This document shows positions 9,694-26,959 of a stretch of 64,000 nt of DNA, one piece after another (position 1 is the stretch's first letter; each line of letters starts with the position of its first letter). Made by a program: the position numbers and the translations under genes. The notes below the pieces were generated by a model. It did no database searches and had not been told where the DNA came from. It was given only the letters and a program-made list of their open reading frames with translations. Where the stretch lies: the IMG/VR virus record IMGVR_UViG_3300030105_001626, positions 13,625 to 77,624 of that record, one strand, 5' to 3'. The DNA is from a virus.

Positions 9694-10809
9694 TTAAGCA
9701 AATTCATTGTGTCGTGTTGGCATTAAAACATCATCTATTAATTCATTTTGCATTGCATACTTACAGTATGAACAATCGTGTTGTCTTGTAAAGTTATCTA
9801 CACCTTCTTGTGTGTTATAGAACTCTGTAATACCTTCAATATCACATAGTTTAAATTCATCATTCACACGATATAGATTTTCTGGTGCTAATTCTGCTGA
9901 TGGACAAACATAAACATTTCCATCAGTGAATACAAATGGTTTAACACCGTGCATATAACAATTACTATTTCTTCTCTCGCCTTTGAAGTTGAAATCCGAT
10001 AAGAAAGCGTATTGCAATTTACCAAATTCTTTTTCGTGGACTTTTATTAGACTTCTTATTTTTTCAATGTCTTGTTCTACAATCTTTGTTGCTTTGATAG
10101 CATTGAAAGCTATTCTAGTCGGTATTTTATTTTCTTCTACCCACATTAACATCTTTAAGAAGTTCTCTTCTTTATAATCATTTGATTTTAGTCTTCTTGC
10201 TTTATCATCGGACCATTCACCAGTTACATTTGGATTAGTTGATGTCTCCATTGCTCCGTCCCAAACATAGGCAGCTGAAATCTCGACATCATCAAGACCA
10301 TCAAAAACTTCAAGATTATATTCATAAGGTTTTTCTTCGTCCCATGCATACATGCCCAATCTTACCCATGAAAACATATGCCAAGTCTTTATCTTTTTAA
10401 GTAAAGAACCATTTGTGCATATACCAATCTTCATACCTTTGTTGTAAGCGTATTCCACTACTTCATCTAATTTTGGATGAAGAGTCGGTTCACCTCCGCC
10501 AGTAAATTCTAATCCCTCTGCACCAAGAGCGTGAAATTGGTCAATCGCAGACTTCATCTGGTCAACTGTAAGCATTTCTTTCATTGCTCTATTGGCAAAA
10601 CAACAGAATGAACATGTGAGATTACAAGGATTACATGGTGACATGTGAATCATTATTGGTTTAGGTTTCTTACCTTGTTGTAAGTCGACCAATCTATCCA
10701 TATGTTTTAGTAATTTGCTTGTATTACTAGAATAGCTTCGCCCTTTAATTTGAGCATCATTATCTGATTTTTTCTTTACAAATTTTATTGTTTGTGTCAA
10801 ATCAATCAA
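9694..10809 (-). CDS. radical SAM enzyme with C-terminal twitch/SPASM-like cysteines
   Basis: CNLTCSFC (CxxxCxxC), FTGGGEP, C-terminal C...DGNVYVC...CSYC. Confidence 0.9.
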   Translation of the reverse strand: MIDLTQTIKFVKKKSDNDAQIKGRSYSSNTSKLLKHMDRLVDLQQGKKPKPIMIHMSPCNPCNLTCSFCCFANRAMKEMLTVDQMKSAIDQFHALGAEGLEFTGGGEPTLHPKLDEVVEYAYNKGMKIGICTNGSLLKKIKTWHMFSWVRLGMYAWDEEKPYEYNLEVFDGLDDVEISAAYVWDGAMETSTNPNVTGEWSDDKARRLKSNDYKEENFLKMLMWVEENKIPTRIAFNAIKATKIVEQDIEKIRSLIKVHEKEFGKLQYAFLSDFNFKGERRNSNCYMHGVKPFVFTDGNVYVCPSAELAPENLYRVNDEFKLCDIEGITEFYNTQEGVDNFTRQHDCSYCKYAMQNELIDDVLMPTRHNEFA

Positions 10810-24850: not shown

Positions 24851-25381
24851 TTAAAAGTAATCGCCAATTCCACCACTTAAAGAACCAGTTTGAACTGGCT
24901 TTTCTGCAGGAGTTTCTACCGGTGCTTTTGGTCCACTTCCCATAGAATATCCACTTTCATCTTCTACTGGATATGATGATTGTTTTGTTTCAAATTCCCA
25001 ACCTTCTTTTACAAATTGTTGAAAGTTTGGTGGTGTCCATGTTGTAGGTTTTAGAATCTTACCATCTTCTCTCTTTGTTACCAATCCAGTTTCTTTATTA
25101 ATCTTAATTAAATTATTTGCAGCACCTTCTTTCCAGATACCATCAACATTTAATCCTAATGAATTCATGTAGCCAAGAATAACCCATATTGAATCAAAAC
25201 AAGCATCAATGATTTCTGGTTTATCGCCAATAGCCATGCTTGTGTGTAATTCTGCAATCTCTTCTTTTATAAGATTATAATATAGGTCAGATTGTGGTTG
25301 ATTAACCGTTGTTGTGGTTTGTCCTGCAGCTTTCATAAAGGTCTTTACATCTTTATTAAAATTTGTGATTGCTTTAGTCAT
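24851..25381 (-). CDS. MazG-like NTP pyrophosphohydrolase
   Basis: LIKEEIAE...EIIDACFD, KREDGKILKP. Confidence 0.75.
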   Translation of the reverse strand: MTKAITNFNKDVKTFMKAAGQTTTTVNQPQSDLYYNLIKEEIAELHTSMAIGDKPEIIDACFDSIWVILGYMNSLGLNVDGIWKEGAANNLIKINKETGLVTKREDGKILKPTTWTPPNFQQFVKEGWEFETKQSSYPVEDESGYSMGSGPKAPVETPAEKPVQTGSLSGGIGDYF

Positions 25382-25848
25382 AATATTTTCCTTGATTTAT
25401 AATATTTTTTCATTCCTTCTGATATCTTAGTCTTTGTTTCGTCACTATGCCATTCTAGTTCTTTTGCCTTTTGATTAGCAACACGAGAGGCACGATTGTT
25501 TCTAGCGTGTTCGGCAGTTCTTACTTTACCACTTGCAGACTTAGACATTTTTCTTTTGGTCTCTTCAGAATGTTTTTTGCCAATCTTACTTGCAATCATT
25601 CTAGCTTTGCCTTCTGGTGACATTCTATTTTTCATACTCCCACCAATTGAGCGTGCCATGAAAAGCGCCTCGTCCTTATTCATTTGACCTTTTAGCATAT
25701 GCCAGGCCATAAAATCTTCTTGTTTTCCATGTTGTTCGTATAATTTCTTATGAGCGAGACTATGGTCTTCAACTGAAAGTTCTATAAGATTGGATGGTTC
25801 GTCTGTTCCACCCATGTGCTTAGGTATTATGTGATGTTTATGTTTCAT
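25378..25848 (-). CDS. free-standing HNH homing endonuclease with NUMOD3-type DNA-binding motifs
   Basis: HHIIPKHMGG...NLIEL...H...H HNH core; GKKHSEETKRKMS and HSDETKTKISE repeats; CTAAATA late-like promoter at 25854-25860. Confidence 0.85.
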   Translation of the reverse strand: MKHKHHIIPKHMGGTDEPSNLIELSVEDHSLAHKKLYEQHGKQEDFMAWHMLKGQMNKDEALFMARSIGGSMKNRMSPEGKARMIASKIGKKHSEETKRKMSKSASGKVRTAEHARNNRASRVANQKAKELEWHSDETKTKISEGMKKYYKSRKIL

Positions 25849-25896
25849 ACATCTATTTAGTAGCATCGTGAGTTCAAACCTAACTCTTTGCCCAAC

Positions 25897-25919
25897 AAAA
25901 AACCCTCTTGCGAGGGTTT
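25897..25919 (-). terminator. Rho-independent terminator after pqqA
   Basis: AAACCCTC-GCAA-GAGGGTTT followed by TTT. Confidence 0.85.
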
Positions 25920-25981: not shown

Positions 25982-26331
25982 TTATCTATTCATAACATAC
26001 ATAGTCACTTCAACGTAGTGGTGGCAGGCGTTCCAGAGTATTCGTCTTTTTGCCTGTTGCCTTGTTATCGATGTGGCTCTTTATCCTCACCTTCAATATA
26101 TCACTATATTGTCCAGACTATATCATCAAGACTTGTTGTCTTGCCGGGCACTCGTGTCATCTTCATCACTGTTCTAGTGGTATGATGTTAGTCGTTGAAC
26201 CTTCTCATAATCCCTTATGAGCTTGGATGCTGATTGTCTCGAAAGATGTCCCAGCAGTTCACCCGGTTTTAATTGGGCCTAAATCAAATTAACCCAAAAC
26301 GCATTTCAGTTGCTGATGGAGTTGTCCACAT
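25982..26331 (-). CDS. pqqA: PQQ precursor peptide, spliced from exon 1 (26292-26331) and exon 2 (25982-26013)
   Basis: Joined exons encode MWTTPSATEMRFGFEVTMYVMNR* (23 aa) with the PqqA ExxxY core; SD AAGGA upstream. Confidence 0.92.
26014..26291 (-). mobile_element. ORF-less group I self-splicing intron (IA-like), 278 nt, in pqqA
   Basis: P1 UUGGGU/GCCCAA with U.G at the 5' splice site; P3 CCGGGUG/UGCCCGG; P4 UGCUGG/UCAGCA; P6a CUCAUAA/UUAUGAG; GUUCAACGACUA and GAUAUAGUC (P7); P8 CAAGAC/GUCUUG; P9 with GUGA loop; terminal G. Confidence 0.92.
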
Positions 26332-26438
26332 AGTATTGATTCCTTTTTAAAAAGTTATATTAAAGAACCAGGTCAACAGAGAGTATTTCTACAAAGTCTG
26401 CCTTGAGATTTAACAAACAATTTCTATTTGTTAAAGGT

Positions 26439-26467
26439 ATTTTATACTACTTGACAGCTAAAAGCAA
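26439..26467 (-). promoter_or_regulatory. putative sigma70 promoter for pqqA
   Basis: TTGCTT-N17-TAAAAT. Confidence 0.5.
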
Positions 26468-26494
26468 TAGAGAAAATCATTAAATTGTTCTAGA

Positions 26495-26959
26495 CTATTT
26501 TATTAGTCCTACCTTGTATACAGTTTTGCCATTTTCTTTCATAGCAGTTAAAGCTCTTTTACGGTTGCTACCATCTGTTTTGTGACTTACATGAACCCAA
26601 CCAGAGTCATCAATACCTGGAGTATAAAACTCCAATATTACTTGGTCGAAGTCGAGGTTGTCTACAATATACTGAGCCAGGTCTGCATTGGCGACACCAG
26701 GACACTCTATGTCGGCAGCTTCACCGTGACAGTGTTGTGATTTAGATGAACCGCCTACTGCTTTGTTAAGTTCTGGACCACGATATCCTGAATTGATTGT
26801 TGTTACGCCAAAATGGTCTCTGACCTTTTGCACAACATTATCGAATAAGGCTTTTGCATTTTCTAGATGACCATCATCTGGAGTATTATCAATGTCCATT
26901 CGAATTGCTGTTTGGCTTTTAGTAAATTCTTGTAGTGTAAAGTTTTCAGATAGTTTCAA
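26495..26959 (-). CDS. peptidase M15A family (possible endolysin)
   Basis: INSGYR, SQHCHGEAADI, WVHVS zinc motifs. Confidence 0.85.
   Translation of the reverse strand: MKLSENFTLQEFTKSQTAIRMDIDNTPDDGHLENAKALFDNVVQKVRDHFGVTTINSGYRGPELNKAVGGSSKSQHCHGEAADIECPGVANADLAQYIVDNLDFDQVILEFYTPGIDDSGWVHVSHKTDGSNRKRALTAMKENGKTVYKVGLIK

Follow-up and report, generated by a model that had tools for sequence, protein, structure and literature searches.

Collaborative homing has been described, in passages of two papers (PMC3984707; PMC6083498), for the cyanophage gene psbA with the endonuclease F-CphI and for a T7-like DNA polymerase gene. The psbA system of cyanophage S-PM2 (Zeng, Bonocora and Shub 2009, as related in passages of the same two papers) resembles the locus reported here in several respects: S-PM2 is also a T4-like marine phage, the free-standing endonuclease gene lies directly downstream of the interrupted gene, intron-less alleles are common in relatives, and collaborative homing was proposed. 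In phage T4, the nrdB intron and the free-standing HNH nuclease gene mobE provide a case of homing in trans, in which the nuclease mobilises an intron that does not move by itself and flanking markers are co-converted (PMC2790892). Viral PqqA, in turn, has been reported as an auxiliary metabolic gene of Methylophilaceae viruses in Lake Baikal (Coutinho et al. 2020, PMC7678222), and the peptide family, the inferred host family and the proposed role, i.e., supply of the precursor for PQQ-dependent methanol oxidation, are the same as those considered here. The present analysis concerns a phage pqqA gene that is split by an insert and followed by an HNH nuclease gene. PqqA is a 23-residue peptide that is consumed stoichiometrically by PqqB-E to make PQQ, the cofactor of methanol dehydrogenase, and its residues Glu15 and Tyr19 are the ones that are cross-linked to form PQQ. 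We consider it likely, and with good confidence, that the insert is a splicing group I intron and one half of a two-part selfish element, the HNH nuclease being the other half.

The window, i.e., the whole stretch of 64,000 nt that was analysed, comes from an IMG/VR record of 77.6 kb with a completeness of about 44%. The record carries T4-type replication genes, among them one for a DNA polymerase 49% identical to those of cyanomyoviruses, and the phage is a T4-like marine myovirus with a PqqA matching those of Methylophilaceae (methylotrophs of the OM43/LD28 type). Since 14 DNA runs from nine studies each hold at least 94% of its sampled words, the locus is not an assembly artefact; the runs holding it are seawater, marine and sponge metagenomes. 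A marine OM43-type methylotroph is the likely host. Methanol dehydrogenase, PqqC and PqqE were sought in the 77.6-kb record, and none of the three was found. Given the lack of PqqC and PqqE in this roughly 44%-complete record, the processing enzymes PqqB-E would come from the host, and the benefit of PqqA to the phage would presumably be a metabolic one that rests on the host. A 372-aa frame in the window (10387-10659, minus strand; G000:C1:24011-24283) reached 27 bits with the PqqE model against a cut-off of 381, and its product is best regarded as a generic radical-SAM protein and not as PqqE.

On the minus strand, pqqA, an auxiliary gene that stands alone in this phage, consists of exon 1, an intron and exon 2 with 23 sense codons (Table 1). 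The frame that opens with the ATG at 26331 runs through 13 PqqA-like codons and two more codons and then meets a TGA. When the intron (26291-26014) is taken out, GGGT joins TTGAAG and an open reading frame of 23 codons ending at 25982 results, exactly as the original prediction had it; the stop two codons into the intron of the unspliced frame had also been foreseen correctly. The host gene, too, had been named correctly: the spliced peptide differs from MWTTPAATEMRFGFEVTMYVMNK, the intron-less PqqA of Methylophilaceae phage P19250A, in A6S and K23R only, i.e., in two of 23 residues. The P19250A peptide scores 40.3 bits with PF08042 and 38.8 bits with the equivalog model TIGR02107, while exon 1 alone (26331-26293) covers positions 1-13 of the 19 positions of PF08042 with 19.4 bits (cut-off 21.1). 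The Glu-X-X-X-Tyr pair formed by Glu15 and Tyr19 is present once the intron has been removed. At 3.9 times the length of the 72-nt open reading frame, the intron agrees with the earlier estimate of about four. In P19250A, a cultured LD28 phage (KX815270.1), the intact 23-aa PqqA is encoded at 1515-1586 and is absent from the GenBank annotation. A PqqA-like variant ending in GLDLTMYVNE, in which Asp replaces the conserved Glu15, occurs in a metagenome contig (L128) and in a Methylophilaceae genome (L243); this may be a paralogue that has diverged or else a copy that has lost its function.

Table 1 Coordinates of the features of the split pqqA locus, in window numbering and listed in the direction of transcription of pqqA
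Feature	Position	Strand	Remarks
pqqA exon 1	26292..26331	minus	40 nt, ATG to GGGT; last T is base 1 of the Phe14 codon
Group I intron	26014..26291	minus	278 nt, ORF-less, IA-like; P7.1/P7.2 hairpin, no P2, omega-G at 26014
P1	26273..26297	minus	exon strand 26297-26292, guide 26278-26273; loop has the TGA stop and the P10 strand
P10	26283-26279 with 26013-26009	minus	5 bp; 90% of cells paired, one compensatory pair
Catalytic core	26116..26266	minus	Rfam alignment and pair counts per helix
P3	26266-26260 with 26150-26144	minus	core helix
P4-P6a	26256-26200	minus	core
P7	26193-26189 with 26120-26116	minus	pseudoknot
P7.1/7.2	26187-26158	minus	hairpin
P8	26142-26128	minus	core
P9 and P9.1	26070..26111	minus	P9 26111-26094, GUGA loop; P9.1 26091-26070
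Extra 3' hairpin, P9.2-like	26023..26061	minus	39 nt; stem in MFE fold
pqqA exon 2	25982..26013	minus	starts TTGAAG, ends TAA; rest of Phe14, Glu15-Tyr19 core, stop
Intrinsic terminator after pqqA	25900..25919	minus	8-bp G+C stem, then T run
Degenerate intron-less pqqA junction copy	25864..25883	minus	local alignment to the locus's own spliced pqqA
Free-standing HNH-NUMOD3 homing endonuclease gene	25378..25866 (longest ORF)	minus	PF01844 and PF07460

Several lines of evidence identify the insert as a group I intron. In a scan of 701 nt, it matched the Rfam model Intron_gpI (RF00028) with 65.3 bits (gathering score 50, E = 2.8e-16), and its core shares about 80% identity with introns of Bacillus phages that interrupt DNA polymerase genes beside I-BasI. 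When the whole 64-kb window was compared with Rfam, the intron was returned neither in gathering mode nor in E-value mode, a result that reflects filter loss, as the 701-nt scan gives 65 bits. The expectation that ORF callers would overlook the intron thus extended from the ORF listing to two whole-window Rfam scans, and annotation by routine methods would not pick it up. The longest sense-strand ORF within the intron has at most 28 aa. A search of the window for paralogous introns, carried out by nhmmer with the intron profile, finds this copy only. The P7.1/7.2 hairpin is typical of subgroup IA. P1, placed by hand, comprises 6 bp between the exon sequence UUGGGU and the guide GCCCAA. In line with what had been predicted from group I splicing rules, the intron has a U.G pair at its 5' splice site, ends in G and forms a P10 of 5 bp, and the group I assignment, for which a covariance-model search had been suggested, is upheld by the RF00028 score and by covariation in six alleles.

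A homologous intron occupies the same pqqA site in seven further distinct alleles of viral or metagenomic origin. These were obtained by scanning viral contigs with an exon-1 pattern and with an intron-core pattern, and metagenome contigs with the former, and together with the window they make up a set of eight (window, L124, L125, L130, L131, L132, L265 and L303), to which a truncated copy (L126) adds nothing. A pattern for introns with a first base other than T after GGNT gave no matches. All eight introns follow base 1 of the Phe14 codon, and their removal restores a 23-aa PqqA in each case. Across the set, substitutions occur in 17 of the 23 sense codons and are overwhelmingly synonymous. 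Glu15 and Tyr19 are the same in every allele, and the amino-acid changes in the exon-2 core (V/I, M/L, M/C, K/R) are found in intron-less PqqAs too. This pattern of variation indicates that the spliced reading frame is under selection. In all eight alleles, the P1 loop contains an in-frame stop, which is reached two or three codons after the start of the intron. Five alleles besides that of the window were scanned against RF00028 and scored 65-90 bits.

The structure itself has been kept by compensatory change. In the alignment of six alleles (window, L124, L125, L130, L131 and L132), 98% of the structure cells hold standard pairs and 23 of the 68 pairs have changed on both sides. When one strand was slid by 1-3 columns as a control, only one to four such pairs remained, and none of 500 shuffles reached the observed values. 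RNAalifold, run without a supplied structure, arrived at the same helices with 22 of 65 pairs compensatory. Compensatory changes affect six of seven pairs in P9 and three of seven in P9.1. The U.G pair at the 5' splice site is found in all six aligned alleles, L265 and L303 show the same pairing in their sequences, and the terminal base of the intron is G in eight of eight. Most tellingly, the P1 guide has changed in concert with synonymous positions of exon 1: where the exon has GGU for GGG, the guide has A for C, and where it has UUC for UUU, the guide has G for A. We take these observations to mean that the intron structure is under selection. Together with the insertion site shared by seven further alleles, the strong covariation puts the feature well outside what chance would produce. 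Note that the P9.2-like hairpin belongs to the window allele only: it corresponds to an insertion of about 45 nt relative to the other five aligned sequences, and none of the seven other complete alleles has it, the truncated copy not being assessable in this respect.

On L130, a freshwater metagenome contig (1-705 minus, 1851-2166), the intron-bearing pqqA and a convergent HNH gene have as neighbours a thioredoxin and the N-terminal portion of a PQQ-dependent alcohol/methanol dehydrogenase; the opposite flank holds a glycosyltransferase and a metallophosphoesterase. None of the flanking genes is matched in 120 Methylophilaceae pqqA loci, and matches to viral contigs were obtained for the thioredoxin alone. 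L130 is probably viral rather than bacterial; if it were bacterial, the intron would have reached a host genome.

Uninterrupted pqqA genes are far from rare. At least 120 viral contigs and 123 copies in bacterial genomes match the exon-1 pattern; the gene is uninterrupted in every one of them, and exon 1 of the window aligns collinearly with these intron-less genes. Nearly all of the bacterial copies are from Methylophilaceae (Methylotenera, Methylophilus, Methylopumilus and the OM43 clade) or from unclassified MAGs. In total, more than 230 intron-less genes run straight through the insertion site and define the junction exactly.

Past the terminator, 115 nt downstream of pqqA, lies the HNH-NUMOD3 gene. 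Its homologues suggest that the real start is the ATG at 25848, and the protein shares about 39% identity with homing endonucleases that T4-like cyanophages encode as free-standing genes. It is directly followed by a gene (24851-25381, minus strand) for a MazG/PRA-PH-like pyrophosphohydrolase (PF01503); for the latter, the close relatives L124 and L129 show 84-95% identity, with the HNH protein in between at only 57-70%. An HNH homologue is located within 1.5 kb of pqqA in eight of eight intron-bearing alleles, in one of 111 intron-less viral copies with enough flanking sequence and in none of 104 bacterial copies. In L130 and L131, the gene is convergent with pqqA; in the remaining six intron-bearing alleles, the two genes are co-directional. 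Comparison of the window with L124 and L125 reveals neighbouring proteins that are mostly 84-99% identical (76% for the DUF6561 protein of L124) against the 57-70% of the HNH protein, and hence an HNH block that has been exchanged independently of its flanks.

A natural comparison is offered by two contigs, L015 and L265, which represent the same phage around the pqqA locus, the former with an empty and the latter with a filled site. Upstream, they are 98.8% identical over 643 nt, and six of the eight mismatches are clustered in the final 33 nt of exon 1. The homology ends exactly after nucleotide 40 of pqqA, where L265 has an intron of 240 nt, and resumes with three mismatches in the 37 nt that make up exon 2 and a few bases beyond. 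A block of 598 nt in L265, containing the terminator, a junction-like site (see below) and the HNH gene, then stands for 56 nt of L015, after which the two agree without a mismatch over 1737 nt. Intron-less alleles in related phages had been proposed as a check in the original prediction, and this near-isogenic phage with an empty site yields exactly the junction that had been predicted. We read the arrangement as a homing footprint, be it by gain or by loss, with the pattern expected of double-strand-break repair with co-conversion. As far as a natural comparison can stand in for a cross, it shows that intron and nuclease gene move as one unit.

Could the intron be real and splicing and the HNH gene nevertheless be independent of it, with another target or as a marker of a recombination hotspot, i.e., a mere hitch-hiking neighbour? 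The variable orientation of the gene would fit such a situation, and free-standing nuclease genes are common at phage exchange boundaries according to passages of PMC10448857. In addition, the single HNH-bearing case among the 111 intron-less viral copies, the T4-like contig L028 (1560-2190), has an HNH homologue directly after an intron-less pqqA with Leu in place of Met18. It follows from L028 that the nuclease can exist without the intron; the contig may represent a stage before arrival of the intron or after its precise loss, with a target-site variant that confers self-immunity. Against independence stand the strict linkage among intron-bearing alleles, as opposed to its near-absence elsewhere, and the L015/L265 pair, in which intron, converted exon tract and HNH block come together between otherwise identical flanks. 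A third argument is provided by the junction-like site conserved upstream of the HNH gene. We therefore regard an unconnected nuclease as improbable.

This junction-like site is a degenerate copy of intron-less pqqA that spans both sides of the insertion site, a sequence that is contiguous only in intron-less DNA. It is situated at -40 to -18 relative to the conserved MKH start ATG in six of seven HNH-bearing loci (window, L124, L132, L265, L303 and L028), and each of the matches was reached by at most 26 of 2000 shuffles. The copy is followed by a TATAAATA-like box, and no Shine-Dalgarno sequence is visible. The site may be a relic of the 3' half of a pqqA beside which the nuclease gene first inserted, or it may serve as an operator bound by the nuclease.

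RNA data were available as Logan contigs of four metatranscriptomes. The pqqA locus is present in these RNA libraries, with carry-over of DNA being possible. One contig of 191 nt, 100% identical to 26093-26283, contains intron only, and another of 190 nt, 100% identical to 26186-26375, is unspliced across the 5' splice site. A third contig of 246 nt is identical to 26291-26512 (222 nt) and then continues with an exon-2-like sequence at exactly the predicted junction. Its exon 2 differs from that of the window at three positions, and a search with a 24-mer from it found this sequence only in an unrelated intron-less pqqA contig (L253). The joined contig, which may stem from an intron-less sibling phage, was set aside as a candidate for spliced RNA on account of its differing exon 2. 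Three other RNA contigs were rejected as transcripts of the locus, as they match over 41 nt only and represent foreign pqqA transcripts. The RNA contigs of the four metatranscriptomes contain no joint with the window's own exon 2, and exon 2 and the 3' untranslated region are uncovered.

These data bear on the notion that the insertion is decayed and dead for splicing and that pqqA of the window phage is a pseudogene. A spliced product was not directly observed among the RNA contigs, and the minimum free energy fold of the single sequence, while containing the right helices, is no more stable than that of shuffled sequences (z = -0.82). A dead element would, however, hardly retain all core helices through compensatory changes in six aligned alleles from several lineages, nor the invariant U.G pair and omega-G, nor exons whose variation is mostly synonymous and which keep the frame, Glu15 and Tyr19. 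The co-variation of the guide with synonymous exon changes is left unexplained by decay altogether. We consider this reading very improbable.

For the preferred reading, a splicing group I intron paired with its nuclease, the following course of events is envisaged. In the pre-mRNA, the exon sequence UUGGGU would pair with the intron guide GCCCAA as P1, the U.G pair marking the position of cleavage. The 5' splice site would then be attacked by an external guanosine that is bound in P7; P10 would align exon 2, and the freed exon 1 would attack after the terminal G, such that the exons are joined and the Phe14 codon is restored. Ribosomes on unspliced RNA would halt at the stop in the P1 loop before reaching Glu15 and Tyr19, and for this reason the PqqA precursor would be made only after splicing. 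A stop of this kind within an intron has been tied to intron folding, in that ribosomes are kept off the folding ribozyme (passages of the review PMC3984707). The most likely target of the HNH-NUMOD3 endonuclease is intron-less pqqA, which it would cut at the insertion site or close to it. Repair from an intron-bearing genome would then copy intron, exon 2 and nuclease gene together, which amounts to collaborative homing, and the intron would protect its carrier by disrupting the nuclease target. That splicing is instead a regulatory gate on PqqA, responsive to translation rate or GTP level and kept for its benefit and not as a parasite, is scarcely credible: a ribosome running through the 40-nt exon 1 to the P1-loop stop would indeed sit on P1, the stop is conserved in eight of eight alleles and splicing of T4 introns depends on translation and growth state (references cited in passages of PMC3984707), but the more than 230 intron-less pqqA copies function without the intron, its distribution tracks the nuclease gene and not phage phylogeny, as predicted for a selfish element, and it contains no sensor domain.

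A broader proposal, which we put forward tentatively and ourselves rather doubt, is that pqqA is a homing target common to the whole methylotroph-phage community and that the HNH nuclease cuts pqqA of the host as well as that of unrelated co-infecting phages and spreads the cassette between viral families. The junction of about 30 bp is shared by several T4-like lineages, by siphoviruses, among them P19250A, and by the chromosomes of hosts, which often have it more than once. If the proposal were true, cutting pqqA of co-infecting phages would be a form of interference competition, and the phage copy protected by its intron would be the sole remaining source of the precursor. The site before the HNH gene that resembles the junction would then be an autorepression operator, as in the case of T4 I-TevI.

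Both the mechanism, that of an ordinary group I intron, and the life style, that of an ordinary collaborative-homing unit, are familiar; what is new is the unusually small host gene. The literature was searched for pqqA or PQQ in combination with introns, and no report was found. As far as this literature goes, the intron is the first reported in pqqA or in any RiPP precursor gene, and pqqA is the second auxiliary metabolic gene after psbA with a group I intron and a partner nuclease. With 72 nt, the host ORF is probably the shortest protein-coding gene known to carry a group I intron. The case also exposes a blind spot in annotation, as ORF callers see only a 15-codon stub. Such a stub, the Rfam scans that missed the intron and the unannotated copy in P19250A imply that surveys of auxiliary genes undercount pqqA. 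Hundreds of empty sites and a near-isogenic pair of filled and empty loci constitute a clean natural system for collaborative homing, and the same system is suited for asking whether selfish nucleases shape the competition among methylotroph phages.

The intron is also linked to a second setting. The pqqA-intron profile matches 8-13 tandem related group I introns of about 230 nt in genes of uncultured phages (L282, 497-3788, minus strand; L258, 703-5350, minus strand; also L259, L263, L280 and L281). Micro-exons of roughly 30-120 nt separate these introns, and HNH-like ORFs are interspersed. The array-bearing gene encodes the major capsid protein, the C-terminal piece of which matches PF03864 (Phage_cap_E); tRNA genes, considered as an alternative identity of the arrays, were discarded as ARAGORN finds no tRNA. 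By sequence similarity, the pqqA intron belongs to the same ribozyme family. The original prediction had placed phage group I introns typically in DNA-metabolism genes or psbA, a restriction that does not hold, given the abundance of this family in capsid genes. Twort orf142 with its three introns is the classical multi-intron case. While the capsid-gene introns form arrays in a structural gene, the pqqA intron is a single copy in a gene for a metabolic peptide and has a nuclease partner.

Set against the systems named at the outset, the locus differs in each case in a distinct way. The uninterrupted pqqA of the Lake Baikal viruses is from freshwater and the gene studied here is marine; neither an intron nor a nuclease is described there (Coutinho et al. 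2020, PMC7678222). The T4 nrdB intron keeps a defunct internal endonuclease ORF (I-TevIII), whereas the pqqA intron has none, and its host gene serves nucleotide metabolism, unlike pqqA. In S-PM2, the host gene is psbA as compared with a 72-nt peptide gene here. F-CphI has an Endo VII-type motif, as stated in a passage of PMC6083498, in contrast to the HNH-NUMOD3 architecture of the enzyme encoded next to pqqA, and cleavage has been shown for F-CphI, while the pqqA-associated nuclease is known from its sequence.
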